Below are positions 10,050-29,718 of a DNA stretch of 32,000 nt, piece by piece (position 1 is the first letter of the stretch; each line of letters opens with the position of its first letter). The notes beneath the pieces are model-generated. The model ran no database searches. It had not been told where the DNA came from and was given only the letters and a program-made list of their open reading frames with translations. Both the position numbers and the translations under genes were made by a program. This DNA comes from Vibrio cholerae ATCC 14035. Its GTDB lineage: Bacteria > Pseudomonadota > Gammaproteobacteria > Enterobacterales > Vibrionaceae. The stretch lies in the NCBI RefSeq assembly GCF_000621645.1, contig NZ_JHXR01000015.1, forward strand, positions 30,001-62,000. The letters run 5' to 3'.

Positions 10050-12905
10050 TTACGCTTTACGAATGTTACAGAGGGTGACTTTGGTTTCTTGCATCAAGGT
10101 GACAGGATCGTAGCCGTAGGTTGTGGCGGTGTTTGCCGCTTCCCCAACCACATAAGGCTGTGTCCCTTCTGGGTATTTTGGACGCAGATCTTCCCCTTGG
10201 AACTTGCCACCAAAGTGGAATGGTAAGAACGCCATGCCCGGTTTCACCCGACGAGTCACCATGGCTTTGACTTTGATGCGCCCTTTCTCTGCGCCTTCAA
10301 CCCAAACCATATCACCATCCATAAAGCCTAAATCGTTGGCATCTTTCGGGTTCACTTCAACAAACATCTCTTGTTGTAGTTCGGCTAGCCAAGGGTTAGA
10401 GCGGGTTTCTTCACCACCGCCTTCATACTCGACCAAGCGACCTGAAGTGAGAATGATCGGGTATTCCACTGATTTATCTTGCGCTTGAATCGATTTGTAC
10501 AGGGTTGGCACACGGAAAATAAACGCTTGATCGTCCCACGTCGGGTAATCAGCGAGTAGATCACGACGTGGTGTATACAGCGGTTCACGGTGCAGCGGCA
10601 CGCGGTCTGGGAATGTCCACACAATCGCCCGCGCTTTCGCGTTACCAAATGGAATACAGCCGTGTTTGATCGCGACACGCTGAATGCCGCCAGAAAGGTC
10701 AGTTTTCCAGTTTTTACCTTCTGCAGCCGCTTTCTCTTCCGCAGTTAAATCATCCCACCATCCGAGTTGTTTCAGCAGCTTATCGCTAAATTCTGGATAG
10801 CCGTCTTGCAGCTCACACCCTTTCGAGTAGCTATCTTCAGCCAGCAAACTCTTACCTTCAAACTCCACACCAAAACGGGTACGGAAGTTACCGCCACCTT
10901 CGGCTACGGTTTTCGAGGTATCGTAAAGAATGTGTGTGCCGGGGTGTTTCATCTCTGGCGTTCCCCAACATGGCCAAGGCATACCGTAAGTATCGCCATG
11001 CGCAGGGCCACCTTCGGCCGCCAACGTAGTTTTGTGGAAGGTGTGCCAGTTCTGTTGGTGTGTTTTCAAGCGCTCTGGGCTTTGTCCGGTGTAACCAATC
11101 GTCCACATACCGCGGTTAAATTCACGGGTGATGTCTTCAATCAGTGGCTGATTGTTCTCAACCCGAATGTGTTTACACAACTGATCTGCAATCCCCAGTT
11201 TTTGACTGAGCAGATACATGATTTCGTGATCAGGTTTGGATTCAAACAGCGGCTCAATCACCTGATCACGCCACTGAATAGAACGGTTAGACGCCGTCAC
11301 ACTGCCGTATGTTTCAAACTGAGTGGTCGCTGGAAGCAGATACACTCCATCGGTGCGATCGTTCATTACCGCCGCAACCGTTGGGTATGGGTCAACAATC
11401 ACCATCATATCCAGCTTTTGCATCGCCTTTTTCATTTCCACGCCGCGGGTTTGCGAGTTCACCGCATGACCCCAATAGAACATGGCGCGGATGTTTTCAC
11501 GTTGCTGAAGGTTGTCTTTGTTTTCAAGTACACCATCGATCCAACGAGAGACAGGGATCCCCGGAGTTTCCATTGGCAATGCGCCGTTATAAGTGCCTTG
11601 GTCAAAGCGGTTTTTGATCCACTCGAAATCCACGCCCCATACGCTTGCCCAGTGTTTCCATGAACCTTCGGTCAAACCGTAGTAACCCGGCAATGTATCG
11701 GAAAGCACACCTAAGTCGGTTGCGCCTTGCACGTTATCGTGACCACGGAAAATGTTGGCACCGCCGCCTGATTTACCGATGTTGCCCAGCGCCAACTCAA
11801 GGATGCAGTACGCACGAGTATTGTTGTTACCTGTGGTGTGTTGCGTACCGCCCATACACCAAATCACACAACCCGGACGGTTTTCCGCTAGGATTTTCGC
11901 TGTGGTGTAAACTTCTTCTTCGCTTACGCCAGTGACACGCTCAACTTCGGCTGGTGTCCATTTGGCCACTTCCGCGCGGATTTCATCCATACCGAAGACA
12001 CGTTGACGGATGTACTCTTTGTCTTCCCAGTTATTTTTGAACACGTGCCACAGCACGCCCCAAATAAAGGCTACGTCACTACCCGGGCGCAGGGAAACAA
12101 AGTAATCCGCTTTTGCTGCAGTACGGGTACGACGAGGATCGGCAACCACGATTTTGCAGCTGTTTTTCTCTTTTGCGATCAAAATGTGCTGCATCGCGAC
12201 TGGGTGAGCTTCGGCGGGGTTAGATCCAATGAACAGCATCGACTTACAGTTGTGCATGTCATTGAATGAGTTGGTCATGGCACCATAACCCCAAGTGTTT
12301 GCTACACCCGCAACCGTGGTGGAGTGGCAAATACGCGCTTGGTGGTCAACGTTGTTGGTGCCCCACAGGGAAGCCATTTTACGGAACAGATAGGCCTGCT
12401 CGTTACTGTGCTTAGCACTGCCGAGAAAATAAACCGAATCTGGGCCTGACTCTTCACGGATCTTCAGCGCTTTGTCACCAATTTCATTGATGGCTTGTTC
12501 CCAAGAGATCTTCTTCCACTTGCCGCCTTCGAGCTTCATTGGGTATTTCAGGCGACGTTCACCGTGGCCGTGTTCACGTAACGCTGCGCCTTTTGCACAG
12601 TGACCGCCCGCGTTGAATGGGTGATCAAAAGCCGGCTCTTGGCCAGTCCAAACACCGTTTTGTACTTCAGCGTAGATACCGCAACCGACGGAACAGTGCG
12701 AACAGATGGTACGCTTCACTTCCGTTTTTGCGCTGCGATCCACGTCGCTGGCCTGAGCTTTACGGATCATGCCCGGCGTAAACAAAGAGGCACCAACCGC
12801 CGCTCCGCCCGCTGCCAGTGACGTGTTTTTCATAAAGGCACGACGGCTAATACCGAGCTGATTTTGCTCTTTGGTCACGCTGTCTGAACGTTTGATGAGT
12901 CTCAT
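10050..12905 (-). CDS. fdhA: Formate dehydrogenase catalytic (alpha) subunit, bis-MGD molybdo/tungsto-enzyme, Tat-exported, Cys-type
   Basis: Twin-arginine signal (GISRRAFMKNTSLAAGGAAVGA...AQA). N-terminal FeS motif CSHCSVGCG...C. The active-site segment HQARICHSTTV carries Cys where Sec-type enzymes have U, and there is no in-frame TGA. SD TAGGAG precedes the ATG at 12905. Confidence 0.93.
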   Translation of the reverse strand: MRLIKRSDSVTKEQNQLGISRRAFMKNTSLAAGGAAVGASLFTPGMIRKAQASDVDRSAKTEVKRTICSHCSVGCGIYAEVQNGVWTGQEPAFDHPFNAGGHCAKGAALREHGHGERRLKYPMKLEGGKWKKISWEQAINEIGDKALKIREESGPDSVYFLGSAKHSNEQAYLFRKMASLWGTNNVDHQARICHSTTVAGVANTWGYGAMTNSFNDMHNCKSMLFIGSNPAEAHPVAMQHILIAKEKNSCKIVVADPRRTRTAAKADYFVSLRPGSDVAFIWGVLWHVFKNNWEDKEYIRQRVFGMDEIRAEVAKWTPAEVERVTGVSEEEVYTTAKILAENRPGCVIWCMGGTQHTTGNNNTRAYCILELALGNIGKSGGGANIFRGHDNVQGATDLGVLSDTLPGYYGLTEGSWKHWASVWGVDFEWIKNRFDQGTYNGALPMETPGIPVSRWIDGVLENKDNLQQRENIRAMFYWGHAVNSQTRGVEMKKAMQKLDMMVIVDPYPTVAAVMNDRTDGVYLLPATTQFETYGSVTASNRSIQWRDQVIEPLFESKPDHEIMYLLSQKLGIADQLCKHIRVENNQPLIEDITREFNRGMWTIGYTGQSPERLKTHQQNWHTFHKTTLAAEGGPAHGDTYGMPWPCWGTPEMKHPGTHILYDTSKTVAEGGGNFRTRFGVEFEGKSLLAEDSYSKGCELQDGYPEFSDKLLKQLGWWDDLTAEEKAAAEGKNWKTDLSGGIQRVAIKHGCIPFGNAKARAIVWTFPDRVPLHREPLYTPRRDLLADYPTWDDQAFIFRVPTLYKSIQAQDKSVEYPIILTSGRLVEYEGGGEETRSNPWLAELQQEMFVEVNPKDANDLGFMDGDMVWVEGAEKGRIKVKAMVTRRVKPGMAFLPFHFGGKFQGEDLRPKYPEGTQPYVVGEAANTATTYGYDPVTLMQETKVTLCNIRKA

Positions 12906-13887: not shown

Positions 13888-15549
13888 TTAATACTTGAGC
13901 TGCTGCTCAGGGTCATGTGCCATGGCTTCAAACATGTCGACTACCCGGCAGTCTTCGCACATCGCAATACGATTGAGCGCTTCCGGTGTAGCGAAATGTG
14001 AGTGACCGCGTAACTTGGTTTGCAACATGGTAATCATGGATTGTGGCGCGAAAGGTTTATGGCAACGCAGGCACTTAGCGGGTTCTTCTTGATGCAAAGT
14101 CACCACACCTTGGCGTGCCGCTTTGTTCCAGTTGAGTTGTGGCGTCGCGCTAAGCGCTTGTTCAGGGCAAGCTTTGACACACAAGCCGCACTGCACACAG
14201 TCTTGTTCAATAAAGCGTAGTGCTGGGCTATCTCCCGCCGGATGCAGTGCACGCGTTGGGCAAACCGCAACACAGCTCATGCATAAAGTACAATCGCTTG
14301 CTTGGCATTCAATGGTGCCGTAAGGCGCGCTAATACTGAGTGGTTGAACGCTCGGTTGTGCATTGAGTGTTTCTGCTAACGCATCCAGCGCGGTAAACAG
14401 ACGTTCGCGCTTATTACCGATTAAGTCACCCAACTTAAGCCCAAGCGGCTGTTCACACAGTACCGGCATCCCCTCGCGTAGCGATTCGAGATAAAGAATA
14501 TCAATCGTCTCTTTGGGCAAACCCAAGTGAGTCAGCAAGCTCTGCGCCATGCTCATTTCTTGGTTGAGAATACGCTGGATAGTGGGCGGCATATGACGGC
14601 TCGCGGCAAACAACACTTGAGTTGCACCGTTAACTAAAGCAGCAAACCAGCTGTCGATACCGACAGAAGGCAGCTCTTCTACCACCACAGGAATCACGTT
14701 ATCTGGTAATACCTTAAGTGCCATGACGTTGTAACTTTCATGTCGAGAACTGCAGATCAGCACGATCGGTTTTTCACCGCCAGCTTGGTGGTAATTCGCC
14801 AGTAATCGCTCAATAAATTTTTGCGTATCGGTAGGATTAGGCAGCGCGTAGTGAATCGCTTCCGTCGGGCAAGCGGTCGCACAGGTTCCGACGCCCTGAC
14901 ACAGGTAAGGGTTAATTTGAATCCGATGCCCTGTTTGCTCTGAACCTTCACTGGACAGTGCGCCAGCAGGACATGCATCCACACAGCGTTCACAGCCTTT
15001 CACACCGCGTGAACTGTGCGCGCACAAATCGGGATCCAAGCGAAAATACTTAGGTTTATCGAAAGTGCCCATCAGAGTTGGGATCTCTTCCAGCGCATCC
15101 GCCAGCTTTGGATAACCGCGTCCTACTGGAAAATAACCGGGTACAGGTACTTCTTCACTCATTAAACCGTTGAGTGACATATCCAATACGATATCAAAGC
15201 TGTTTCCACCTATCGCGGCTTGCGCCAAATTGACTCGTTTACCGTGGTTTTCTACGTTCACCGAGAAGGCGCCGAGGAAACCGCTGATTTCTACCGTATC
15301 GGCATAGTACAAATTGCTTTGTGTGCCAGGCTCACCATCCACAGAAAGGAGCGTGATTGAAGCCATACTGCTCAGTGGCTCGGTAATACGCTCAATGAGC
15401 ATAGTGGGTCCAATAATTAAGGTATGGCCGCCACTTTCGTAACTTACGGTAGGAGGAATAAGATTGGTCAACTCAACCGTATGCTCAATCGCATACTGTC
15501 TCGCCCGACCGTTTGGAGACGTCGCTTGTTGTAGTAGGTTGTTTAACAT
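13888..15549 (-). CDS. Cytoplasmic multi-cluster 4Fe-4S ferredoxin-domain protein (553 aa), FDH-associated, function unknown
   Basis: Four ferredoxin-type Cys motifs (C..CERCVDACP; CQGVGTCATACP; CQASDCTLCMSCVAVCP; CVQCGLCVKACP) plus a C-terminal CLRC...CEDC knuckle pair. No signal peptide. It is the first gene after a sigma-54-like promoter. Confidence 0.85.
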   Translation of the reverse strand: MLNNLLQQATSPNGRARQYAIEHTVELTNLIPPTVSYESGGHTLIIGPTMLIERITEPLSSMASITLLSVDGEPGTQSNLYYADTVEISGFLGAFSVNVENHGKRVNLAQAAIGGNSFDIVLDMSLNGLMSEEVPVPGYFPVGRGYPKLADALEEIPTLMGTFDKPKYFRLDPDLCAHSSRGVKGCERCVDACPAGALSSEGSEQTGHRIQINPYLCQGVGTCATACPTEAIHYALPNPTDTQKFIERLLANYHQAGGEKPIVLICSSRHESYNVMALKVLPDNVIPVVVEELPSVGIDSWFAALVNGATQVLFAASRHMPPTIQRILNQEMSMAQSLLTHLGLPKETIDILYLESLREGMPVLCEQPLGLKLGDLIGNKRERLFTALDALAETLNAQPSVQPLSISAPYGTIECQASDCTLCMSCVAVCPTRALHPAGDSPALRFIEQDCVQCGLCVKACPEQALSATPQLNWNKAARQGVVTLHQEEPAKCLRCHKPFAPQSMITMLQTKLRGHSHFATPEALNRIAMCEDCRVVDMFEAMAHDPEQQLKY

Positions 15550-15605
15550 TGCTTGCTTCCGCTTATAAGAATCACGAGCGTGTTGGCTCGTTTTACATAA
15601 GCTAA

Positions 15606-15621
15606 AGCAAATAGCGTTCCA
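15606..15621 (-). promoter_or_regulatory. Sigma-54 (-24/-12) promoter-like motif upstream of the FeS/TorD/FDH operon
   Basis: The minus strand reads TGGAAC-GCTAT-TTGCT (consensus TGGCAC-N5-TTGCW) with GG-N10-GC spacing intact. It sits 57 nt upstream of the ATG at 15549. Confidence 0.5.
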
Positions 15622-15687
15622 AATTTATTTTATTGAAAAATCAGAGAATTTATCGATAACTGGGATGAGAAATGAAAAGCCACAATA

Positions 15688-15712
15688 AGAGTGAGACATT
15701 ATGTCTCACTCT
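15688..15712. promoter_or_regulatory. 25-bp near-perfect palindrome AGAGTGAGACA-TTA-TGTCTCACTCT; candidate enhancer (UAS), or alternatively the terminator of the DUF3305/3306 unit
   Basis: It has 11-bp perfect arms. Its centre is about 80-95 bp upstream of the -24/-12 motif at 15606-15621. It lies 36 nt past the DUF3306-like stop. Further TGTCYC half-sites occur at 15735-15740 and 15763-15768. Confidence 0.4.
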
Positions 15713-15747
15713 ACCTATTGAGGAGTAAGTCAAAATGTCCCTAATCT

Positions 15748-16350
15748 CTATACGGTATATTTTGTCTCACTGTTCAGTGTGTCAGATGCCGCAGTATCGC
15801 AAGAAGAAAGCGTATTGTGATCAGAAAGCCGCGCAGAATCCTCAGCGAATTCGGGCGCAGAAGCTGTCGTTTCATCAGGCATGCTTAAATCAGTCATAGT
15901 TTGGTCAGACATGGCTTTTTCCGGTATAGCCTGTTCAGACTTAACCTCTGGCGTCGTTTCTAGCTCATTACACCATTGGCGTAAGGTTTGTGCGACTTGC
16001 GTGGTGAGGGTTGCTGTGTTGCTGTAATCCGCGTTGTAATCATCCAGCATACACACTTCGCTAAACTCGCCGCTTAAAAACAGCTTACGCAATGCCGCTT
16101 TCTTCAGTTCTTGCGACGCATCGGATACCAACAAACTCGCTACGCTGGGTTCTTCATTCTCTGCTGAATGAGGTTGTTCGAGCGAGTGGCTCTCCAACCC
16201 ACTTTCCGTTTCTACAGCGGACTCACTTTCTATCGGCTCCTCTTGCACAGGCTGAGAGTCAAAACTCTTTTGGGTATCAAGCAGTTGGTCTGATTCTGCG
16301 GTTAATTTACGTTGTGACCAACGAGAGAAAAACCTGTTTTCAGTTGCCAC
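15748..16350 (-). CDS. Acidic low-complexity protein, DUF3306-like (name from memory)
   Basis: The start is set at GTG 16350 (VATENRFFSRWSQRKL), 4 nt after GGAGG. It overlaps the upstream stop by 11 nt. The middle is a Glu/Ser-rich linker, and the conserved-looking C-terminal block is LRKLFLSGEFSEVCMLDDYNADY. Confidence 0.65.
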   Translation of the reverse strand: MATENRFFSRWSQRKLTAESDQLLDTQKSFDSQPVQEEPIESESAVETESGLESHSLEQPHSAENEEPSVASLLVSDASQELKKAALRKLFLSGEFSEVCMLDDYNADYSNTATLTTQVAQTLRQWCNELETTPEVKSEQAIPEKAMSDQTMTDLSMPDETTASAPEFAEDSARLSDHNTLSSCDTAASDTLNSETKYTV

Positions 16351-16816
16351 AAGACCTCCCCGCGCCTTCACGTTTCTTGCGGCGAATTTCCAGTAGCTCA
16401 CCGTGACGACCAATATAGGCTTCCATCCACGCCTGAACGGGTAGCGGCATATCGGCCGACAGCACCAGATAATCGCTGTCCATATAGCGGCTGGCGACGG
16501 CTTGCGATGCGGTCAATTGCACGACTTTAAGCGGCTGATCTTCAATCGGATCTTCGGCAACCAAGAACAGCTTTGGCGCTTGTGAACTGAGGTTAAAGCG
16601 ATAGTCAGTACGCTCGTCACGATACAAGTGCAAGGTTGCGACATATTGACTCTGCGCCTCTGGCGTTAAACTGAAACCGTGCAACATCCACTGCGTGGTT
16701 TGCCAACGGCCACGTGAGACCAAACGCGGCTCAAGGTTGCAAGCGAGCGGCCAAGCGCTGTCGGTTTTACTATGAGCACCATCCGTTAAGGATTCAGGAG
16801 AAGTTTGTTCAGTCAT
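16340..16816 (-). CDS. DUF3305-like protein (158 aa), FDH-cluster associated, function unknown
   Basis: A clean ORF immediately downstream of a sigma-54-like promoter and translationally coupled to the next gene. I recognise no catalytic motif. Confidence 0.7.
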   Translation of the reverse strand: MTEQTSPESLTDGAHSKTDSAWPLACNLEPRLVSRGRWQTTQWMLHGFSLTPEAQSQYVATLHLYRDERTDYRFNLSSQAPKLFLVAEDPIEDQPLKVVQLTASQAVASRYMDSDYLVLSADMPLPVQAWMEAYIGRHGELLEIRRKKREGAGRSCGN

Positions 16817-16852
16817 AACTCATACTAAATTAACAATCAGAGTTGAAATTAA

Positions 16853-16868
16853 AGCAATAATTGCGCCA
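16853..16868 (-). promoter_or_regulatory. Sigma-54 (-24/-12) promoter-like motif upstream of the DUF3305/DUF3306 genes
   Basis: The minus strand reads TGGCGC-AATTA-TTGCT with correct GG-N10-GC spacing. It sits 37 nt upstream of the ATG at 16816. Confidence 0.5.
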
Positions 16869-16932
16869 TGGGTACCAGTACCTTGCTTTAAGTAGAGCAA
16901 CATCATCACTTTTGTGCAGTTTGTTTTTGATT

Positions 16933-16948
16933 CGGCACCCTTTTTGCT
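16933..16948 (+). promoter_or_regulatory. Sigma-54 (-24/-12) promoter-like motif upstream of fdhD
   Basis: The plus strand reads CGGCAC-CCTTT-TTGCT with correct spacing. It sits 93 nt upstream of the fdhD GTG at 17041 and back-to-back with the 16853-16868 motif. Confidence 0.45.
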
Positions 16949-17040
16949 ACATTGACGGCACTTTTTCTTATTCGCTCTACCGCAAGATTTGCACTGACAG
17001 ATCGGCGGTGAATAAAGCGAGCAATACACAGGAATCCAGC

Positions 17041-17874
17041 GTGGCTAAACCTTCCATCATCAAAACCAGCGAAAATCCTCTGCAAACCATTGAGGTTGAA
17101 GTGTATGACGAATACGGCGAAAAACTGGTGAAATCGATCGCCTGTGAACGCCCTCTCACTGTTCTGCTCAACTGGAAAGAGATAGTGACCTTGATGACGC
17201 TCGGTTCGCGGCCAGAAGCTTTAGTGCTGGGTTATCTGAAGAACCAAAGTTTTATTTCCGATCCGGAAGCGCTCGATTCCATCATCATCGATTGGGAAAC
17301 TCATTCGGCCGCGGTGGTTACGCGTGAAAACATTGACCATTTAGAGCCTGCGCTGAAGAAAAAAACCGTCACCTCCGGCTGTGGCCAAGGCACCATGTAT
17401 GGCAACGTGATGAAGCAGCTTGAACATTATCAAGTGCCGCAACAGCCAATTAAACAGTCACAAATCTACGCTGCTCTGGAAGCATTGACTCACTACAACG
17501 ATACCTACAAAAAAGCCGGCGCGGTGCATGGCTGCGCAATTTGCCAAGAGGATCGGGTGCTCTCTTTTGTGGAAGATGTCGGTCGCCACAATGCAGTGGA
17601 TACTTTGGCCGGTGAAATGTGGCTCAATGGCATGCGTGGGGATGACAAAATTTTTTACACCACAGGTCGTTTAACCTCCGAGATGGTGATTAAAGTGGCG
17701 CAAATGGGGATTCCTGTGCTGCTATCGCGCTCGGGTGTGACTCAAATGGGGCTTGAGCTTGCGCAACGTTTTGGCATTACCACGATTGCTCGCGCTTCCG
17801 GTCGTCGCTTTCATGTGTACAGTGGCGCAGACAAAATGGTGTTTGATGTGAAAGGCCACAGTGAAGAGGCATAG
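17041..17874 (+). CDS. fdhD: Formate dehydrogenase accessory sulfurtransferase FdhD
   Basis: FdhD family motifs are present (SGCGQGTMYG cysteine loop, VEDVGRHNAVDTL, RLTSEMVIKVAQMGIPVLLSRS). The start is moved to GTG 17041 behind AGGAA, giving 277 aa, the usual FdhD size. Confidence 0.88.
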   Translation: MAKPSIIKTSENPLQTIEVEVYDEYGEKLVKSIACERPLTVLLNWKEIVTLMTLGSRPEALVLGYLKNQSFISDPEALDSIIIDWETHSAAVVTRENIDHLEPALKKKTVTSGCGQGTMYGNVMKQLEHYQVPQQPIKQSQIYAALEALTHYNDTYKKAGAVHGCAICQEDRVLSFVEDVGRHNAVDTLAGEMWLNGMRGDDKIFYTTGRLTSEMVIKVAQMGIPVLLSRSGVTQMGLELAQRFGITTIARASGRRFHVYSGADKMVFDVKGHSEEA

Positions 17875-17920
17875 CAACGTCTTTGCACCATAGAGGTTTT
17901 TAACGTGTTTCGGATAGCAA

Positions 17921-17943
17921 AAGAGCCTCACATAGAGGCTCTT
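17921..17943. terminator. Bidirectional terminator hairpin between convergent fdhD and ybiT
   Basis: Stem aagagcctc(17921-17929)/gaggctctt(17935-17943), loop acata. Confidence 0.6.
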
Positions 17944-17980
17944 AGTATTATTTAGCATGCAAAATATTGGCTTAGGAAAC

Positions 17981-19573
17981 TTAGCCTTCAACGCCACGTG
18001 ATTTCAGGAACTCAGCGTAAGTGCCTTTGAAGTCAGTGATTTTGCCATCACGAATTTCGATGATGCGAGTCGCCAAAGAGTCTACGAATACGCGGTCATG
18101 CGATACGAAGAACAGCGTGCCTTTATATTGCTCTAAGGCGTTGTTCAAAGACTCGATCGATTCCATATCCATGTGGTTGGTTGGCTCATCGAGCAGCAGC
18201 ATGTTTGGCTTGTGCATCATGAGTTTGCCAAGCAACATACGACCTTGCTCACCACCCGACAGTACCTTCACGGATTTCTTGATGTCATCTTGGCCAAACA
18301 GCATACGGCCCAAGAAGCTGCGAACCACTTGCTCATCATCGCCTTCTTGACGCCACTGACCCATCCACTCCATCAGGTTCAGATCTTCTGCGAACTCGTG
18401 AGCGTGGTCTTGCGCATAGTAACCAATATTCGAGTTTTCAGACCACTTGTACATACCGCTACGTGGCTCAAGTACGCCAGCTAGGGTATTCAGCAATGTG
18501 GTTTTACCCACACCGTTCTCACCGATGATGGCAACACGCTCACCCACTTCAAAAATCGCGTTGAAGTTGCTGAACAGGTCATGATCAAAACCTTGGCTGA
18601 GGTTTTCAACAATAAGGGCGTTACGGAATAGCTCTTTCGATTGCTCGAAACGAATGAATGGGTTCTGACGGCTTGATGCCTTCACTTCATCCAGTTTGAT
18701 CTTATCAATCTGTCTTGCACGAGAAGTCGCTTGTTTTGCTTTCGATGCGTTCGCCGAGAAGCGCGCTACGAAGGTTTGCAGTTCAGTAATTTGCGCTTTC
18801 TTCTTCGCGTTATCAGATAACAGACGCTCACGCGCTTGAGTGGCCGCAGTCATGTATTCGTCGTAGTTGCCTGGGTAAATACGCAGCTCACCGTAATCCA
18901 AGTCAGCCATGTGGGTACAGACTGAGTTTAAGAAGTGGCGGTCATGCGAGATGATGATCATGGTGCAGTTACGCGCATTCAGCGTATCTTCCAACCAGCG
19001 AATGGTGTCGATGTCCAAGTTGTTGGTCGGTTCGTCAAGCAGCATGATATCTGGATCTGCAAACAGGATTTGCGCCAGCAGCACACGCAGTTTCCAACCC
19101 GGAGCCACACTGCTCATCAGGCCGTAATGTTGCTCAAGAGGAATACCCACCGCGAGAAGTAGTTCACCCGCTTTGGATTCTGCCATGTAGCCATCCATCT
19201 CGGCGAATTCCACTTCGAGATCGGCAACACGCATACCATCTTCTTCGGTCATTTCGGGCAGCGCATAAATACGGTCACGCTCTTGTTTTACCTTCCACAA
19301 CTCTTTGTGACCCATGATAACGGTGTCGATTACCGTGAACTCTTCGTACGCAAACTGATCCTGATTCAGCTTGGCAACGCGCTCGTTTGGATCGTAGCTC
19401 ACATTACCGCCACTTGGTTCGAGCTCACCACTGAGGATTTTCATGAAGGTGGATTTACCACAGCCATTTGCCCCGATTAGACCGTAGCGATTACCTTCGC
19501 CAAACTTAACTGAAATGTTTTCAAACAGTGGCTTAGCGCCAAATTGTTGAGTGATATTCGCTGTAGAAATCAA
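17981..19573 (-). CDS. ybiT: ABC-F family ATPase (two ABC domains, no membrane domain), YbiT homologue
   Basis: 530 aa and near-collinear with my recollection of E. coli YbiT ([37 protein letters not shown]..., two Walker A/B sets). TTG start at 19573. Confidence 0.9.
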
Positions 19574-19784
19574 AGCCTGTACCTTAGTGCGTTAACATTC
19601 CCGCCCACTTAAAACGGCGCACTTCGAGTGGCTAAATTAAGCTGACAGGGATCACAAATAGAAAAATCTGCGCAACGTTACTTGTTCAGCGCCCAGACTA
19701 CAAGCCCTGATTTACATAACGCGCATGAAAGTCAGTCATCTCAAGTGAAATGACCAACAAAATAACGAGCTTTTCGTAGGGGGA

Positions 19785-21818
19785 TTATTGAAGCAGCAAG
19801 GTCTCGCGAAGTTTCGCTTCATTTTTGGAAGGCAGGAAGATACTGAAAGTGCTACCCACGCCCAATTCAGACTGCACTTTAATTTCTCCGCCAGACTGGC
19901 TAAGCAAACTTTGTGAAACCGAAAGCCCAAGCCCTGTCCCCTCACGTTTGGTGGTATAAAACGGATCGAAAATACGTTTGAGGTTTTCTGGCTTAATGCC
20001 ACAACCTTGATCTTCAATGTGGATCACCGCTCCGCGGTTTTGCCCCTCTTCAACCCAATCTTCGCTACGTATCGTGATGCGGCCTTTGCCGTTCATGGCA
20101 TGAATCGCGTTCATCTGTAGGTTAACCAGAATTTGCAGCAGTTGATGGCGATTCACCTCCACCGAATTGTGCGCTTTCAGTTCCAGCACAAATTCAATAT
20201 CGCGCTTTTTCGAACCAGTTTTGACTAAGGTAATACTCTCATCAATGATCGGATTGACGTGTTGCCACGTGATTTCGTCCTGCACTCCGCCTTGGCGACT
20301 GTATTGCAACAAGCTGCGCGTGATGTTTCGGATCCGCTCGATTTGCAGCAAGATGGCATCAATTTCTTCTTCGACTCTGCTCGCATCAGCACCAAGCTCA
20401 AAACGAATTAACTCGGTATTACCGAGAATCACGGCGGTAGGGTTATTGATTTCATGGGCAATCCCCGCGGTTAGCTCACCAAGTGCCGCCAGTTTTTCAT
20501 GCACCACTAACTTATTGCGCGTTTGGTTAAGCAAGGCAATGTGGTGCTCAAGCTGCGCGGTTTTCTCTTGCAAACTGGCGGTGCGCGATTGCACTTTTGC
20601 TTCTAACTCATGCGCGGCTTGCACGATTTCTTCATTCCGTTGCTGCAACTGATCCAGCATGTTGTCGAATTGCTTCGCAAGCTGAGCGAGTTCATGTTTG
20701 TCATCAAGCCCAATTTGACCAATACGCTGGTTTTTACCAAGTTGCACCATTTTCACTACACGGTGAATGCGCTCGATAGGACGAAACAGATCGCGCGAGC
20801 CACGGTACACAAACAGGCCTGAAATCACCAGCAGGAAAAGCGTGATGATCCCGACTTCTAAAATATTGGTCACGTAAGCTTTTAAAAACGGCCACATTAA
20901 GTAGCCGGTGTACAGCATGCCAATTTCGTTGTGGTATTGATCGCGAATCGGCTCATACGCGGTGATGTACCAAGCATCATACACATACGCCAGATTAACC
21001 CACTGCTGACCACCTTTGAGCACTTGATTAAACACTTCGGATGACACCCGTGTGCCTATCGCGCGACCTGCATGGATATTACTGTCTAAAGGCACGTTGG
21101 TGCTGACGCGTAAGTCATCCAAAAACAGGGTTAAAGTGCCCGTTGGGCGAAGCTGATCTTGATGACTTGGGTAGATGAGATCTCGAATTTGATCGACTAA
21201 GGTTGTGCTGTTATTGAGCAGTAAACCACCATCCAAAAAACCTATGATCTCACCGAAGTCATTGCGCACTGGAATCACGGTACGACTGACTAATCCCCGA
21301 GTTTCGATCTGTTGAGAATTAAGAATCGGGATTTGCGCTTGCTTAGCTAAATCCGGATCGAGCTTTTCTAGCTCATCGGCACTAAGTACATCAAAGAAGG
21401 ATTCACGCTTGGTGAGATCGAGATAGCGAAACTTCTGCTCTAAGCTATCCACACGCTCAAAACTTAAGAAATCTAAGCCATAGCGATTTTTTTGATTTTG
21501 CACCCAACGTGGCAAAGTACTGAGGGTTTCCGGCTCTTGCAGACGCTTGCGAAAATCGTACGATTCTGCAAACGCGCGAACGTGATTGGCTTGTTTCTGT
21601 TGCAGTAGAGTTACACTGTTTTGCGCCACGCCTAACCGCTCAGACACATCAATTAAAGCACTGTTCCAGGTGTAATGCAGTGACCAGTAAATGGTGATCG
21701 CAATCAGCGCCAGCAGTGTGAGAAAAATTGGCGCTGAGGTCAGAATCCACAGCCGATAGCGCACGGTGGTTTGAAAACGGTGTCGCCATTTTTGCCACCA
21801 AGCCCATTTAGCTTTCAT
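19785..21818 (-). CDS. Sensor histidine kinase with a large periplasmic Cache-like domain, HAMP, coiled coil, HisKA and HATPase_c
   Basis: TM1 (ILTSAPIFLTLLALIAITIYW), an extracytoplasmic domain of about 270 aa ending in IGMLYTGYL, TM2, H-box LAALGELTAGIAHEINNP, then N/G boxes (QILVNLQMNAIHA, DQGCGI, GTGLGLS). It overlaps the upstream response-regulator gene by 11 nt. Confidence 0.88.
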   Translation of the reverse strand: MKAKWAWWQKWRHRFQTTVRYRLWILTSAPIFLTLLALIAITIYWSLHYTWNSALIDVSERLGVAQNSVTLLQQKQANHVRAFAESYDFRKRLQEPETLSTLPRWVQNQKNRYGLDFLSFERVDSLEQKFRYLDLTKRESFFDVLSADELEKLDPDLAKQAQIPILNSQQIETRGLVSRTVIPVRNDFGEIIGFLDGGLLLNNSTTLVDQIRDLIYPSHQDQLRPTGTLTLFLDDLRVSTNVPLDSNIHAGRAIGTRVSSEVFNQVLKGGQQWVNLAYVYDAWYITAYEPIRDQYHNEIGMLYTGYLMWPFLKAYVTNILEVGIITLFLLVISGLFVYRGSRDLFRPIERIHRVVKMVQLGKNQRIGQIGLDDKHELAQLAKQFDNMLDQLQQRNEEIVQAAHELEAKVQSRTASLQEKTAQLEHHIALLNQTRNKLVVHEKLAALGELTAGIAHEINNPTAVILGNTELIRFELGADASRVEEEIDAILLQIERIRNITRSLLQYSRQGGVQDEITWQHVNPIIDESITLVKTGSKKRDIEFVLELKAHNSVEVNRHQLLQILVNLQMNAIHAMNGKGRITIRSEDWVEEGQNRGAVIHIEDQGCGIKPENLKRIFDPFYTTKREGTGLGLSVSQSLLSQSGGEIKVQSELGVGSTFSIFLPSKNEAKLRETLLLQ

Positions 21819-23262
21819 GGCTGAGATCCTCGCTTTCCCACTCTTTGTATTTACGCTCCAACGTTTTACGTGCCACGCCTAAATCGCGGGCGGCGGCCGA
21901 TTTATTGCCCTCATGCAGCGCCACAATTTGCTGAATATGTGCTTTTTCCACCGCACTCAGAGGCCAATCGTTGGGATATCCCAAGCTGGGCTGCGTGACA
22001 TTGTCACCAAGTGAAATTTCAGAATTATTACTCTGTGACATTGTCACCTCGGGTTCTGCATAAATAGGCAGACCATTGAGCTCTCGCCAATAATGCGCAG
22101 GCGGTTTGCCCAATAACAAGCAGCGCTCAATTAAGTTTTTCAACTCGCGAATATTGCCCGGCCAATCATAGTCTTGCATCGAAGAGATATCTTCATACGC
22201 CCATTTAGGCATTGGCATCCCCAGTTCCGCACAGAGCATTTTGGTGAAAAACGGCAACAGTTCATGCAGATCTTGCTTGCGCTCACGCAGTGGGCTCACT
22301 TCGATTTTCAACACATTAAGCCGGTAGTAAAGATCGCCGCGGAAACGGCCATTTTCGACTTCTTGTTGCAGATTACGGTTGGTGGCGGCCACCACTCGCA
22401 CGTCCACATTCACCTCTTTTTCCGAACCCACTGGGCGCACCGCGCGTTGTTCTAAAACCCGTAATAGCGAGGCTTGCATGGTCAGTGGCATTTCGCCGAT
22501 TTCATCCAAAAACAGAGTGCCGCCGTTAGCCACGCGAAACAGCCCTTCACGACTCTTCTTCGCGCCGGTAAATGCCCCAGAGGTGTGCCCAAACAGTTCA
22601 CTTTCCAGCAGTTCTGGCGCAATCGCGCCGCAGTTGATTGGCACAAAAGGACCTTGGCGACCACTCGCTTCATGGATGCCGCGTGCGACCAACTCTTTGC
22701 CCGTCCCCGATTCCCCTTCAATCAGCACCGAAGCGCGCGACGGAGCAAATTGAACAATGCGCTGCTTGAGTAATTCGGTTTGCACTGAACTGCCGATGAT
22801 TTGTGTTGTGCAGTGGCGTTGAAAATCACGCTGCAAGGCGTACTGCAAACGCTCATTGAGGCGCTTATTCATACAGCGTTGCACCGCTTGCAGCATTTGT
22901 TCGAGGTTAAATGGCTTGAGGATAAAATCGCTTGCCCCCAGTTTGAGAGCGCTGATGGCGGTCTCAAGATCCGCGAATCCGGTCATAAAAATCACATCCG
23001 CGCGGTGATCCGGATCGGTAAACGCTTCTTCCCATTCAATCCCTGAGCGTCCCGGTAGGTTGATGTCTAAAATCAGCAAGTCGTAGTGATGCTCACCACG
23101 CAGCACCTCGGCCTCTTCAATGCTGCTGGCTAAATCGACGCGCGAAAACCATTTACTCAGCGCTTTTTTCAGTACCAGTTGCATACCGACTTCGTCATCA
23201 ACAAGTAAAACAGAGAAGGCTTGATATAAATGGGTTTGATTGAGATCCAAAACTGGTGACAT
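21808..23262 (-). CDS. Sigma-54-dependent response regulator (REC + AAA+ enhancer-binding domain + Fis-type HTH), NtrC family
   Basis: REC domain with LLILDINLPG, Walker A GESGTGKE, the GAFTGA sigma-54 contact loop (GHTSGAFTGA), and a C-terminal HTH (NKSAAARDLGVARKTLERK). Confidence 0.92.
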   Translation of the reverse strand: MSPVLDLNQTHLYQAFSVLLVDDEVGMQLVLKKALSKWFSRVDLASSIEEAEVLRGEHHYDLLILDINLPGRSGIEWEEAFTDPDHRADVIFMTGFADLETAISALKLGASDFILKPFNLEQMLQAVQRCMNKRLNERLQYALQRDFQRHCTTQIIGSSVQTELLKQRIVQFAPSRASVLIEGESGTGKELVARGIHEASGRQGPFVPINCGAIAPELLESELFGHTSGAFTGAKKSREGLFRVANGGTLFLDEIGEMPLTMQASLLRVLEQRAVRPVGSEKEVNVDVRVVAATNRNLQQEVENGRFRGDLYYRLNVLKIEVSPLRERKQDLHELLPFFTKMLCAELGMPMPKWAYEDISSMQDYDWPGNIRELKNLIERCLLLGKPPAHYWRELNGLPIYAEPEVTMSQSNNSEISLGDNVTQPSLGYPNDWPLSAVEKAHIQQIVALHEGNKSAAARDLGVARKTLERKYKEWESEDLSHES

Positions 23263-23328
23263 AGAGGGATTCCATAACTTATTGAGACAGAACGACTCAA
23301 TTAACCTTACATTGGCTAGGCGTAATTT

Positions 23329-23343
23329 GCGACATTTTGTCCC
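23329..23343. promoter_or_regulatory. Palindrome GCGACA-TTT-TGTCCC, candidate enhancer-binding site upstream of the tup promoter
   Basis: It matches 12 of 15 positions of the core of the 15688-15712 palindrome (GAGACA-TTA-TGTCTC). It is centred about 100-115 bp upstream of the sigma-54 motif at 23438-23453. A further GAGACA half-site lies at 23284-23289. Confidence 0.35.
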
Positions 23344-23437
23344 ACACGGTTTAAAGTGTCACTATCTTTAGGCCAGATTTGCCACAAATCACCGACTTTT
23401 TGCAGGGAAAATAGCCCTCAATGAGTAAGAATGACGT

Positions 23438-23453
23438 TGGCATCCCATTTGCT
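23438..23453 (+). promoter_or_regulatory. Sigma-54 (-24/-12) promoter-like motif upstream of tupA
   Basis: TGGCAT-CCCAT-TTGCT, one mismatch to TGGCAC-N5-TTGCW with correct spacing. It sits 100 nt upstream of the ATG at 23554 and is divergent from the sigma-54 activator gene. Confidence 0.6.
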
Positions 23454-23553: not shown

Positions 23554-24381
23554 ATGGAATTCACAATGAAAAAAACAACCTTTACCCTCGCAGCCGCTTC
23601 GTTAATTTTGGTCAGTTACTCGGCTTCTAGTGCCGATGACGCTCGTATTCGTCTTGCGACCACCACCAGTACTTACGATTCTGGCTTGCTTGATTACCTC
23701 CTGCCAAAATTTGAGCAAGATACGGGTTATAAAGTGGATGTGATCGCCACTGGCACAGGTAAAGCGCTGAAAATGGGCGAAAATGGCGATGTGGATTTGG
23801 TGATGACCCATGCACCGAAAGCCGAAGCCAGCTTTGTTGAGGCAGGTTTCGGTGTTCTACCACGTAAACTGATGTACAACGACTTTGTGGTGGTTGGCCC
23901 AGAAAGTGATCCGGCTAAAATCGCCGATGAAAAGAACATCGCGAAAGTATTTGAAAATATTGCTAAAAGCGGCGCTGTATTTATCTCACGTGGTGATGAT
24001 TCCGGCACACACAAGAAAGAGCTCGGCATTTGGGCACAAAACAAGATTGAACCGAATTTCGGTGGCTACCGTTCTATTGGTCAAGGCATGGGTCCAACAC
24101 TGAATATGGCGTCAGAAATGCAGGCTTATACCCTGACCGACCGAGGGACTTGGCTGGCTTACAACAATAAGTTGGCTCTCAAGATTCTGTTTGAAGGTGA
24201 TGAGCAACTGTTTAACCCTTACCAAGTGATCATTGTCAACCCTGAGCGTTACCCAACCACCCAATATCATGCCGCTAAAGTGTTTAGTGATTGGCTGGTG
24301 AACCCTAAAGGCCAGCAGTTGATTAACGAGTTTAAAGTCAATGGCCAACAACTCTTTGTGGCCAATGCGGACAAGCAGTAA
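23554..24381 (+). CDS. tupA: Periplasmic tungstate-binding protein, TupA-like (ABC substrate-binding)
   Basis: Signal peptide (TLAAASLILVSYSASSA) and a mature N-terminus RLATTTSTYDSGLLDYL carrying the TTTS motif characteristic of TupA-type oxyanion binders. ATG 23566 (MKKTT) is an alternative start. Confidence 0.8.
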   Translation: MEFTMKKTTFTLAAASLILVSYSASSADDARIRLATTTSTYDSGLLDYLLPKFEQDTGYKVDVIATGTGKALKMGENGDVDLVMTHAPKAEASFVEAGFGVLPRKLMYNDFVVVGPESDPAKIADEKNIAKVFENIAKSGAVFISRGDDSGTHKKELGIWAQNKIEPNFGGYRSIGQGMGPTLNMASEMQAYTLTDRGTWLAYNNKLALKILFEGDEQLFNPYQVIIVNPERYPTTQYHAAKVFSDWLVNPKGQQLINEFKVNGQQLFVANADKQ

Positions 24382-24387
24382 TCCTCG

Positions 24388-25086
24388 ATGAGTCTTTGGC
24401 AAACAACCCTAGATGCCTTGCATCTGTTGGTGAGTCTAGATCCTAAGCTATGGGAGATCGTTGCGGTCTCCTTTAGTGTTTCGCTAACGGCCATTGCTCT
24501 GGTGCTCATCCCCTCTGTGGTGCTCTCTTTTGTGCTGGCGTACACCAATTTTCGCGGTAAATGGACTCTGCTTTCGCTGATCAATACCCTGCAAGCGGTT
24601 CCAACTGTCGTGATAGGTCTGCTGCTGTATATGTTGCTCTCACGCGCAGGCCCGCTGGGTGATTGGCAGATGCTGTTTACCCAGCAAGCGATGATTTTAG
24701 GTCAAGCACTGATCTGTTTTCCGATTCTGGTTGCCATGATGCATGGTGCGTTGCAATCGACTGATCGCCGCTCGCTAGAAACTTCAATGACGCTGGGAGC
24801 TTCCGTACCTAGGCTCTTTGCAACCTTAGTCTGGGAAGCGCGCTTTCCTTTAATGGCCGCAACCATTGCGGGTTTTTCCCGTATCGTGACCGAAGTTGGC
24901 TGCTCAATGATGGTCGGTGGCAATATCATGGGCTTGACCCGCAATATCCCAACGGCCATTTCATTGGAAAGCAATAAAGGCGCTTTTGCGCAGGGGGTGG
25001 CGCTGGGTATGGTGCTGCTTGCCTTAGCGCTAGGGCTCAACTTTCTGCTCTCTTCCCTACGGGGCAAAGGCTATTTAAGGACATAA
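24388..25086 (+). CDS. tupB: ABC transporter permease, TupB-like
   Basis: 232 aa with 5-6 hydrophobic helices and an EAA-like loop (SLETSMTLGASVPRLFATLVWEARFP). It starts 6 nt after the tupA stop. Confidence 0.8.
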   Translation: MSLWQTTLDALHLLVSLDPKLWEIVAVSFSVSLTAIALVLIPSVVLSFVLAYTNFRGKWTLLSLINTLQAVPTVVIGLLLYMLLSRAGPLGDWQMLFTQQAMILGQALICFPILVAMMHGALQSTDRRSLETSMTLGASVPRLFATLVWEARFPLMAATIAGFSRIVTEVGCSMMVGGNIMGLTRNIPTAISLESNKGAFAQGVALGMVLLALALGLNFLLSSLRGKGYLRT

Positions 25087-25094
25087 GGCCAATC

Positions 25095-25817
25095 ATGACG
25101 ATCAAACTTACCGCACAGCAGCTTTCCATGCGTTTTAAAGATCGCGTGTTATTTCATATTCCCGAGATCGCCATCGGCCCTAATGATGCCATTTACCTTA
25201 AGGGCGACAATGGTGTGGGTAAAACCACCTTATTGAAAATTCTCGCGGGCTTGTTAGAGCCGAGCAATGGTAGAGTGCTTGGCCGTAAACCTTGGTGGCA
25301 GCGCTTGTTTTTGACTTCCGCGACCTCAGAAGTTGTCTATCTTCATCAAAGCCCCTACCTGTTTGATGACACGGTTTATCAAAATGTGGTGTACGGCATT
25401 CGTTTCAGTGGCTTGTCTGCGCATGAAAAGCGCGCGCAAGTGATCACTGCCTTGCGTATGGTCGGGCTAGAAACGCTGGCCGATGAGCATATTTCTGTGC
25501 TTTCCGGCGGAGAAAAACAGCGCGTAGCGATGGCGCGAGCGTGGATCCTCAAGCCCTCTATTTTGTTGATGGATGAGCCGAGTGCGTCATTGGATCAAGA
25601 ATCTATCGAGAGATTGGTTATAATGGCGCGAGATTTATTAGAGCGCGGCTCCAGTCTTGTCATCACTAGCCACCAAACCAACGCCCTCACGGCGCTGTGT
25701 AAAAAGCAGTGGTGGATTAAAGAGCGTCAACTGATTGAGTCGCCTTTGCTGCAGATTGTGAAAGAAAACAATGATAACCACACAAACACTTCCCACGCTT
25801 CAACCTTCCGACACTAG
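25095..25817 (+). CDS. tupC: ABC transporter ATP-binding protein, TupC-like
   Basis: Walker [10 protein letters not shown], signature LSGGEKQR, Walker B ILLMDEP. The non-conserved-looking C-terminal tail overlaps mobA. Confidence 0.8.
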
Positions 25818-26382
25818 CTGGGTGATTCTTGCTGGCGGACAAGCCAGCCGCATGGGAGGACAAGACAAAGGCCTGATCCAGTTGAATGGTCAGCCCCTGG
25901 TTCAACATGTGATCGATAAGTTGGCCCCACAAACGCCGACTTTGCTCATCAACGCCAATCGCAACCAAAGCCAATACCAACAATTTGCGCCGGTGATCAG
26001 TGATGAGTTTCCAGATTATCCGGGACCGTTAGGCGGCATTCATGCCGGTTTAAGCCATGCACCAACCGATTGGGTCGGCTTTGTCCCTTGTGATAGCCCG
26101 TTAATTTGCGATGATTTAGTCGCCCGTTTCTGTCAGGCTGTCAAACCCGAGAGCGATATTTTAGTGGCTCATGATGGTGAACATCAGCAACCTGTGTTTA
26201 CCCTATTTCATAAACGCGTGTTACCCAAACTCAGCGCCTTTTTAGCCCGTGGCGATCGCAAAATCATCTTGCTTTACGATGAATGCCATACTTCTTACGT
26301 CGATTTTAGCGATGCACCAAGCTGCTTTTTTAATTTGAATACGCCACAAGAGTTGGCGCAATTTGGAGCGTTACATCCATGA
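25771..26382 (+). CDS. mobA: Molybdenum cofactor guanylyltransferase MobA
   Basis: [27 protein letters not shown] and FVPCDSP motifs. ATG 25771 overlaps tupC by 47 nt; the in-frame GTG at 25822 is a possible alternative start. Confidence 0.88.
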
Positions 26383-28199
26383 TTGCTTCTGCACACCAGA
26401 ATCCTCAACGCCCTAACCTGCCACTACTCGGTTTCGCTGCCTATTCTGGCACCGGAAAAACGACGCTGCTAGAAGCCCTGCTGCCTAAACTGACAGCAAC
26501 TGGTTTGCGCATTGGTCTGCTGAAACACGCGCACCACGATTTTGATGTCGATAAGCCAGGCAAAGACAGTTATCGCTTACGTAAAGCGGGAGCGTCTCAA
26601 ATGCTGATTGCGTCGCGTAACCGTCATGCGCTAATAACCGAAACCCCCGATGCCGAAGCGGAGTTTGATTATCTGTTGACTCGATTTGATGCTGAAAAGC
26701 TCGATGTGATTTTGGTTGAAGGCTGTAAAAATATCGCTTTTCCAAAAATTGAACTGCACCGCGCGGAAGTCGGTAAGCCTTGGCTTTACCCTCATGATAA
26801 AAACATCATTGCGATTGCTGCCGATGAGACGGTCGCAACGGATCTGCCGCAAATGCACATTAATGATCTCGATGCGATCGCTGATTTCGTTTTGGATTAT
26901 GTCAATAAGTGGCGCGCGCAGCAGATTCAACCACACACAGTGTCAGATTCCAAAAACAATGCAGCGGCATGCTGCGACACTTTATCCCCTGCTTTCCTTT
27001 CTGTAGAACAAGGCCGCGAGAAGATCCTCTCGCTCATCTCACCTTTGGCAGAGACAGAATCGGTAGCGATTCAAGAGTGCTATCAACGCGTACTGGCGCG
27101 TGAAGTTTTCTCTCCGAACAATGTGCCCGCCTATCGCAACTCAGCGATGGATGGCTATGCGCTGCGCAGTGATGATCTTGAACGCGATAGCTACCGTGTA
27201 GTGGCGGAAGTGCTCGCCGGTAGTCATTATCCGAAAACGGTTGAACGCGGCGAAGCGGTGAAGATTATGACTGGCGCACCAATGCCACTCGGTGCTGATA
27301 CGGTAGTAATGCGTGAGCAAGCCACGCAAAACGGCGAACTGGTCAGTTTTGCGGGTGCCAAAATCAAAGCAGGACAAAACGTACGCCAAGCAGGTGAAGA
27401 TTTGGCGCAAGGCCAAGCGGTCTTTAGCATAGGTCAGCGTGTGCTTTCTCCAGAAATGGGCATGTTGGCGTCACTGGGTTTTGCGCACGCGGACGCATTT
27501 CGCTCGCTTAAAGTCGCGATTTTTTCGACAGGCGATGAAGTACAAGCGCCCGGCGGTGACATTGAGCCAAACTCTATTTTTGATTCCAACCGTTTTACTC
27601 TGACAGGATTACTCAAACAGCTCGGCTGCCAAGTGATCGATCTCGGTATCATCGAAGATGACGAAGCAAAAATGATGCAAGTGCTTGAGCAAGCAGCAAA
27701 ACAGGCTGATGTGGTGATCACTTCCGGTGGTGTTTCTGTGGGCGATGCGGATTTCATCAAATCCGCGCTAGAGAAGCTGGGACAAATTGATTTTTGGCGG
27801 ATCAATATGCGTCCGGGACGCCCACTGGCGTTTGGCCAGATTGCTGGAAAACCTTTCTTCGGTCTACCGGGCAACCCTGTCGCGGTAATGGTTTCTTTCA
27901 TCAACTTTGTGGAACCTGCTCTGCGTAAAATGCAAGGTGAACAAGGTTGGCAACCACTGAAAGTCAATGCGATTGCGTTGGAAGATCTGCGCTCTCGCCA
28001 AGGCAGAACTGAGTTCAGCCGTGGGGTTTACGCTTTTAATACGCAAGGACAACTGACAGTACGTACCACGGGCAAACAAGGTTCGGGGATTTTGCGCTCA
28101 ATGAGTGAAGCGAACTGCTTGATTGAAATTGCTCCGGCGATTGATACGGTAAAAGTCGGTGAAAGCGTGACAATCATCCCACTTCAAGGCAGAATCTAG
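26379..28199 (+). CDS. Fused MobB (MGD-biosynthesis adapter GTPase) and MoeA (molybdopterin molybdenum/tungsten insertase)
   Basis: Residues about 1-180 are collinear with MobB ([16 protein letters not shown]...[19 protein letters not shown]). Residues about 200-606 are collinear with MoeA ([44 protein letters not shown]). It is a single uninterrupted ORF, with an ATGA start/stop overlap with mobA. Confidence 0.88.
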
Positions 28200-29591: not shown

Positions 29592-29718
29592 CGATACCCA
29601 AACGACTTGGAGTTGCAGGTAGGCGGCAAGCGAGTGAATCCCCATGAGCATAGACAAACTATGTGATTGGGGTGAATGAACGCAGCCAACACCGCTGCAA
29701 CTTCAAGTAGGAAGGGGA
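29592..29718. repeat. ERIC / IRU (enterobacterial repetitive intergenic consensus) element, about 127 bp imperfect palindrome
   Basis: The core GAGTGAATCCCCATGAGCATAGACAAACTATGTGATTGGGGTGAATGAACG parallels the ERIC core GTGAATCCCCAGGAGCTTACATAAGTAAGTGACTGGGGTGAGCG. The arms CTTGGAGTTGCAGG...GCTGCAACTTCAAG pair with each other. Confidence 0.8.

Follow-up and report, generated by a model that had tools for sequence, protein, structure and literature searches.

The formate dehydrogenase (FDH) island of Vibrio cholerae carries four −24/−12 motifs that are almost certainly functional sigma-54 (RpoN) promoters. We analysed it in a stretch of 32,000 nucleotides from strain ATCC 14035 (contig NZ_JHXR01000015.1, positions 30,001 to 62,000; the window, in what follows). 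We consider it probable that these four promoters are opened by the response regulator VC1522, which is encoded within the island, and that this likely occurs through a conserved upstream palindrome. The window is the VC1510-VC1527 locus of V. cholerae chromosome I, because gene order and gene counts match and because it contains, in the 5′ part of the activator gene VC1522 (23077-23096, plus strand), an exact copy of the 20-mer reported inside VC1522 as a chromatin immunoprecipitation sequencing (ChIP-seq) site of the quorum-sensing regulator AphA (PMC6855506). Thousands of assemblies encode an activator protein identical in every residue, among them replicons that share the gene order. Its nearest non-identical relatives are found in Vibrio species, and the Rfam matches in the flanks, Vibrio RNA AS5 and SdsR, also point to V. 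cholerae.

RpoN promoters of the formate dehydrogenase island

The four motifs had first been proposed in a sequence-only reading of the window, and their sequences, coordinates and strands match the DNA exactly (Table 1). The four of them keep the GG-N10-GC spacing and the TTGCT −12 element, show no more than one mismatch each to the consensus TGGCACN5TTGCW and are followed by their gene at the claimed distances of 37-100 nt to the start codon. The motifs of fdhD and of the DUF3305 gene indeed form a divergent pair, with an offset of 65 bp and 64 bp separating them. The proposal that every transcription unit of the island is preceded by such a motif was overstated, since it holds for four units while two others, the VC1522-21 operon of the regulator and VC1520, which encodes the ABC-F protein, lack one: the best scores upstream of them with the position weight matrix (PWM) described below were 2.6 and 4.0 bits, respectively.

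These promoters had already been demonstrated experimentally. Table 2 of Dong and Mekalanos (2012; PMC3439928) gives the same four 15-mers as motifs of RpoN ChIP-seq peaks in V. cholerae, with peaks validated by quantitative PCR (qPCR) and with RNA sequencing (RNA-seq) fold changes that compare RpoN-expressing with rpoN-deleted bacteria. In this table, VC1516-10 ('Formate dehydrogenase') is listed with TGGAACGCTATTTGC and an RpoN dependence of 22-69-fold (entry 63.9 to 22.3), VC1518-17 (hypothetical) with TGGCGCAATTATTGC and 7.5/10.9-fold, fdhD (VC1519) with CGGCACCCTTTTTGC and 3.0-fold, and VC1523-27 with a dependence of 5.4-2.1-fold. The motifs of the window equal the published ones base for base, and the published operon sizes of 7, 2, 1 and 5 genes agree with our gene map. 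As far as the promoters are concerned, there is no difference between the two loci: the genes, the four 15-mers, the in vivo binding and the RpoN-dependent expression are the same. The predicted RpoN occupancy and RpoN-dependent expression of the four units are thus borne out by the published ChIP-seq and RNA-seq, and the sigma-54 interpretation, supported by these data as well as by the PWM and the conservation analyses presented below, is correct but not new, because identical motifs have been known together with binding and expression data since 2012. VC1510-18 and VC1523-24 also shift in concert in an unrelated riboflavin/iron transcriptome.

Motifs of this kind could also be random matches to a short, degenerate consensus, and simple counts lend this explanation some support. 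TGGCACN5TTGCW with up to two mismatches occurred 22 times in the window against 24.2 expected, that is, without enrichment, and with up to one mismatch six times against 2.04 expected, a number reached in 2 of 100 shuffles. As the consensus counts were unconvincing, we used a PWM and a placement test. The PWM was built from 32 distinct ChIP-seq motifs of other V. cholerae operons (PMC3439928) and did not include the four sites that it was to score. Among the ~64,000 window positions on both strands, ranks 1 to 4 were taken by the promoters of the FDH operon (18.4 bits), tupA (16.8 bits), fdhD (16.2 bits) and DUF3305 (15.4 bits), compared with 14.0 bits for the fifth-best position and a median of 15.9 bits for the training sites. 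A lone 15-bit hit anywhere in the 32 kb turned up in approximately 40-50% of shuffles; in 500 dinucleotide-preserving shuffles, hits of at least 15.4 bits averaged 0.51 per window and four or more of them appeared in 0.2%, indicating that the four motifs clearly exceed the local background. Moreover, only 4.15% of the oriented positions are both intergenic and facing a start codon within 250 nt. At such positions 0.021 hits were expected, and the four top scores all fell there in the correct orientation (Poisson P(≥4) ~8e-9). The PWM ranks, this placement, the coincidence with published ChIP peaks and the retention of the motifs in other genera refute the chance explanation, to which we attach practically no weight.

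Two further sigma-54-like sequences were noted inside coding regions. The fifth-ranked motif, TGGCATTATCTATGC (8266-8280, minus strand), lies within the 140-aa open reading frame (ORF) that ends the FDH operon and faces a Sir2/CobB-like gene (7849-7070). This motif may belong to the seven intragenic RpoN ChIP peaks mentioned for V. cholerae in PMC3439928, or be a chance match. The sequence TGGCGCAGAGCTTGCT (14534-14549, minus strand), on the sense strand within the polyferredoxin gene, has one mismatch to the consensus and scores 11.4 bits, its spacer being GC-rich.

Conservation was analysed in ten orthologous loci (L001-L010), retrieved with the activator protein from Vibrio, Photobacterium, Shewanella, Aeromonas, Thiothrix and two gammaproteobacterial metagenome-assembled genomes. 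Because MAFFT misaligned the −24/−12 elements in the spacer between the enhancer-binding protein (EBP) gene and tupA of several taxa, promoter conservation was read from the PWM scan. A correctly oriented motif preceded tupA or mobA in 8 of the 10 loci, fdhD in three (L001, L004 and L007), and both DUF3305 and the polyferredoxin gene in two (L001 and L004). Across five genera the GG/GC elements were kept at orthologous positions and the spacers varied. In Vibrio albus (L005, 13599-13613), a 15-mer identical to the FDH-operon motif TGGAACGCTATTTGC was found before a gene for an ammonium transporter and is itself preceded by NtrC-like GGTGCGC repeats. This hit was excluded as unrelated, and its identity means that the same sigma-54 core serves an unrelated regulon.

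Direct control by RpoN has been questioned for the orthologous island of Vibrio parahaemolyticus. There, VP1510-15 were 9-27-fold down (log2 −3.2 to −4.75) in an rpoN deletion strain and −24/−12 motifs were given for VP1501, VP1508, which corresponds to the DUF3305 promoter, and VP1510, but an electrophoretic mobility shift assay (EMSA) with purified RpoN alone showed no shift of the VP1510 promoter and the authors concluded that the regulation is indirect (PMC9817140). Transferred to V. cholerae, this result would speak against our interpretation and leave the four motifs as silent or coincidental sigma-54 sites. We regard this as very improbable, given that RpoN was located at the four sites in vivo by ChIP-seq with qPCR-validated peaks and that the RpoN dependence reaches 69-fold (PMC3439928). 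The position and orientation of the motifs are also conserved across genera. Furthermore, sigma-54 without core RNA polymerase (RNAP) binds poorly at many promoters. The V. parahaemolyticus authors concur with this view and consider that holoenzyme or co-factors may be needed to shift VP1510 (PMC9817140).

The probable activator VC1522 and a candidate enhancer palindrome

The gene at 21808-23262, previously read as a sigma-54 activator, proved to be a complete NtrC-type bacterial enhancer-binding protein by its domain content (Response_reg, 2e-23; Sigma54_activat, 1.6e-69; HTH_8, 1.7e-8), with GAFTGA at residues 229-234 of the AAA+ domain. VC1522 is translationally coupled to the Cache-domain histidine kinase VC1521, the two genes overlapping by 11 nt. 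The features that define a two-component activator of the NtrC family are therefore all present, namely the receiver, the GAFTGA-containing AAA+ domain, the Fis-type helix-turn-helix (HTH) and the adjacent histidine kinase. A sequence search with the sensor domain of VC1521 found no solved homologue. We ruled out that VC1522 is an FhlA equivalog, as it scored 235.9 bits against the NCBIfam FhlA model (cut-off 830), with an alignment limited to the AAA+ core (residues 125-386), and has a receiver domain in place of GAF. Its top NCBIfam matches were AtoC (366 bits, cut-off 714) and NtrC (362 bits, cut-off 559). Because it falls under every NCBIfam equivalog cut-off, VC1522 is, judged by these profile scores, an NtrC/AtoC-like response regulator of a distinct, unnamed subfamily. 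The accessible text of the RpoN study names no activator, enhancer or signal for the four promoters (PMC3439928). We think that VC1522 is probably their activator. Expression of VC1521/VC1522 changed during infant-mouse infection in one study.

A 15-bp palindrome, GnGACA-N3-TGTCnC, recurs upstream of orthologous promoters, with copies located ~70-150 bp ahead of the promoters of the FDH operon and tupA. Its exact form occurs twice in the window, each time 70-110 bp upstream of a promoter. For the scan of the window, a PWM of this candidate upstream activating sequence (UAS) was trained solely on other species; the resulting sites are listed in Table 1. We then compared 84 fetched loci, of which L012-L080 were treated as paralogues, because their kinase and EBP genes are in the opposite order and FDH, tup and mob genes are absent, and L012-L047 were taken as background. 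The exact palindrome was found a single time in 566 kb of paralogue loci, and its core GACATTTTGTC was present in 12 of the 84 loci; these 12 were orthologous without exception, and the remaining 72 lacked it. In the EBP-tupA spacer of eight taxa, the palindrome was the best-conserved block. The cluster of three sites before the FDH operon (15693-15768) kept its position and order in Vibrio sp. Y2-5 (L001) and Photobacterium sp. Ph5 (L004), and coordinates across loci placed the centre of the palindrome ~85-200 bp from the GG doublet, an enhancer-like range. The palindrome thus adjoins activator orthologues from Vibrio to Thiothrix and Rhizobium and is absent from loci of paralogous activators. 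In Rhizobium terricola (L011, 13356-13461), the orthologous EBP-kinase pair is followed by two palindromes, then by the promoter-like TGGCATGCGGGTTGCT (a perfect TGGCAT-N5-TTGCT), whose GC-rich spacer kept the PWM trained on V. cholerae from detecting it, and then by an MFS transporter gene; a NAD-type formate dehydrogenase and fdhD are located upstream of the pair. From this distribution, we find it reasonably likely that the palindrome is the binding site of VC1522.

In the mechanism that we propose, RNAP-sigma54 would wait at each promoter as a closed complex. VC1522, phosphorylated by the adjacent Cache-domain kinase VC1521, would bind GnGACA-N3-TGTCnC, using a single strong copy before tupA and, before the FDH operon, a strong copy together with two weak ones, reach sigma-54 through DNA looping and then open the closed complexes. 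The four units driven by these promoters are the operon of a membrane-bound molybdenum/tungsten FDH exported by the twin-arginine translocation (Tat) system, the DUF3305-DUF3306 operon, fdhD, and a tungstate ABC transporter together with genes for the molybdopterin guanine dinucleotide (MGD) cofactor (mobA and mobB-moeA). Since such a regulon combines an enzyme, a maturation factor, metal uptake and cofactor synthesis, it suggests that the kinase signal is formate, or possibly the supply of tungstate/molybdate.

Several observations weigh against this mechanism and would fit an alternative in which the sigma-54 promoters are real but VC1522 does not activate them or does not bind the palindrome; a different EBP would then act in its place, and the palindrome would be a terminator (15693-15707) or the operator of another factor. 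In our literature searches, we came across no test of VC1522 or VC1521 at these promoters and no description of the palindrome as the enhancer of this activator. The UAS scan left the divergent fdhD/DUF3305 promoters without a palindrome, either between them or nearby; the lone candidate in their vicinity (16638-16652) is intragenic and is not kept in place in L001, L004 and L007. The consensus of integration host factor (IHF), WATCAANNNNTTR, had no match in any promoter region, including the stretches between UAS and promoter. In addition, the palindrome at 15693-15707 sits in a longer inverted repeat (15670-15725, minus strand), and the DUF3306 transcript across it folds into a strong hairpin (−21.3 kcal/mol, z = −4.5) followed by the U-rich CUUUUCAUUU. 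A simple terminator scan did not flag this hairpin; the palindrome may be a terminator of the DUF3306 operon as well as, or instead of, an enhancer. On the other side, the palindrome co-occurs with EBP orthologues in alpha- and gammaproteobacteria and is missing from the 72 loci with paralogous EBPs, the copy on the tupA side is flanked by divergent genes, which need no terminator there, what is conserved is the sequence (GACA...TGTC) and not pairing maintained by compensatory changes, and 85-200 bp upstream of the −24 element is a typical distance for an enhancer. With these points considered, we judge the alternative unlikely and retain activation by VC1522 as the preferred explanation. The evidence tips slightly towards a broader proposal, in which the palindrome would be the enhancer of an uncharacterised VC1521/VC1522-type system that, from alpha- to gammaproteobacteria, couples FDH, tungstate uptake and MGD synthesis via sigma-54, and in which activation of the divergent fdhD/DUF3305 pair would not depend on an enhancer close by but would come from a distant or intragenic site, or from solution.

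Two other observations concern the palindrome. A sigma-70-like sequence for the EBP/kinase operon, GTGACA-17-CAAAAT (23362-23334, minus strand; a consensus match only), overlaps the tupA-side palindrome, and autoregulation of the VC1522-21 operon is therefore possible. UAS-like sequences were also found at the MobB-MoeA junction of the fused gene, in the window (26974-26988) and in L002 (5657-5671), L003 (6084-6115) and L004 (6098-6129), where Photobacterium has two copies side by side. The most likely cause is coding constraint where the MoeA domain begins, as judged from the Asp-Thr/Asn-Leu-Ser codons, although these sequences may constitute an internal regulatory site.

Altogether, the value of the promoter finding lies in confirmation, as the reading of raw sequence recovered four experimentally validated RpoN promoters. 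The conserved palindrome is a modest addition; it opens the orphan two-component system VC1522/VC1521 of this major pathogen to direct testing, and it would help to define how Vibrio and its relatives match a respiratory formate dehydrogenase to metal and cofactor supply.

Gene content and further features of the window

Table 1. Promoters, candidate enhancer sites and genes of the formate dehydrogenase island (window coordinates; ~, approximate; transcription starts are predicted ~12 nt downstream of the GC doublet)
Feature	Position	Strand	Details
Sigma-54 promoter, FDH operon (VC1516-10)	15621-15606	minus	TGGAACGCTATTTGCT; ATG 15549; predicted transcription start site (TSS) ~15595
Sigma-54 promoter, DUF3305-DUF3306 operon (VC1518-17)	16868-16853	minus	TGGCGCAATTATTGCT; ATG 16816; predicted TSS ~16842
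Sigma-54 promoter, fdhD (VC1519)	16933-16948	plus	CGGCACCCTTTTTGCT; GTG 17041; predicted TSS ~16959
Sigma-54 promoter, tupABC-mobA-mobB/moeA (VC1523-27)	23438-23453	plus	TGGCATCCCATTTGCT; ATG 23554; predicted TSS ~23464
Candidate UAS, tupA side	23329-23343		GCGACATTTTGTCCC; centre ~128 bp upstream of predicted tupA TSS, 67 bp upstream of EBP start codon; 21.1 bits, rank 1
Candidate UAS, FDH operon, exact palindrome	15693-15707		GAGACATTATGTCTC; centre ~−105 from predicted FDH-operon TSS; 20.2 bits, rank 2
Weaker candidate UAS, FDH operon	15727-15741		centre ~−139 from predicted FDH-operon TSS; 13.1 bits
Weaker candidate UAS, FDH operon	15754-15768		centre ~−166 from predicted FDH-operon TSS; 12.2 bits
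Weaker candidate UAS copy, tupA side	23284-23298		
UAS-like sequence, one mismatch	16638-16652		GCGACATATTGACTC; in DUF3305 ORF, ~280 bp upstream of fdhD −24; 15.5 bits, weak
FDH operon, 7 genes (VC1516-10)	15549 down to 7947	minus	genes 1-7 in the order below
FDH operon gene 1		minus	553-aa polyferredoxin
FDH operon gene 2		minus	TorD/NarJ-type chaperone
FDH operon gene 3		minus	65-aa protein with twin-arginine (Tat) motif
FDH operon gene 4, FDH alpha	10050-12905	minus	intact 951-aa Tat-signal molybdopterin formate dehydrogenase
FDH operon gene 5, FDH beta		minus	4Fe-4S subunit
FDH operon gene 6, FDH gamma		minus	cytochrome b subunit
FDH operon gene 7		minus	140-aa ORF without family
DUF3305 and DUF3306 (VC1518-17)	16816-15748	minus	
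fdhD (VC1519)	17041-17874	plus	
ABC-F ATPase (VC1520)	19573-17981	minus	
Sensor histidine kinase VC1521	21818-19785	minus	two transmembrane segments, periplasmic sCache_3_3, HAMP, HisKA, HATPase_c
NtrC-type enhancer-binding response regulator VC1522	23262-21808	minus	receiver, AAA+ with GAFTGA, HTH_8
TupABC-like transporter, mobA, mobB-moeA fusion (VC1523-27)	23554-28199	plus	

The alpha subunit of the FDH carries a cysteine in ARICHSTT, at what we take to be the selenocysteine position of FdnG-type enzymes. VC1513 was entered as a 'pseudogene' in the N16961 annotation, according to a transcriptome paper. The solute-binding protein encoded by VC1523-27 matched NCBIfam NF041772 over its full length and as its sole match, scoring 244.9 bits where the cut-off is 400; by this comparison it is TupA-like, and the name 'tupA' is plausible but not certified. 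At Rfam gathering thresholds, riboswitches for the molybdenum cofactor or other ligands were not detected in the 80-100-nt leaders of the island. A small GC-rich hairpin, ACGAGCCAACACGCTCGT (15574-15591, minus strand), would span nucleotides ~+5 to +22 of the leader predicted for the FDH-operon mRNA and was flagged by the terminator scan. Outside the island, two RNAs exceeded their Rfam gathering scores, Vibrio RNA AS5 (29592-29716, plus strand; 101.8 bits) and the small RNA SdsR/RyeB (2232-2325, plus strand; 46.3 bits).

Comparison with known systems

A close counterpart is the orthologous island of V. parahaemolyticus (VP1501/VP1508/VP1510-15), which shares motifs at matching genes and an RpoN-dependent FDH operon with V. 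cholerae and differs in the spacer sequences and in the published conclusion of indirect regulation.

In the formate regulon of Escherichia coli, FhlA activates the sigma-54 promoters of fdhF and of the divergent hyc/hyp operons from upstream enhancer sites, and it senses formate directly via its N-terminal GAF domains, with no kinase partner. The V. cholerae island is similar in that FDH and maturation genes are distributed over several sigma-54 promoters, with one EBP and a divergent pair. In contrast, its EBP is a response regulator with a phospho-receiver domain and has a periplasmic Cache kinase as its partner, its enzyme is a respiratory, Tat-exported FdnGHI-like complex whereas E. coli FdhF is cytoplasmic, and its regulon adds tungstate uptake and MGD synthesis.

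In NtrB-NtrC/glnAp2, AtoSC and ZraSR, a kinase phosphorylates an activator composed of receiver, AAA+ and HTH domains, which acts from palindromic enhancers ~100-150 bp upstream and opens the closed complex. VC1521/VC1522 shares this two-component architecture; unlike NtrC and AtoC themselves, VC1522 scores far under their equivalog cut-offs, and the NtrC site, TGCACC-N5-GGTGCA, differs from the candidate VC1522 site, GnGACA-N3-TGTCnC.

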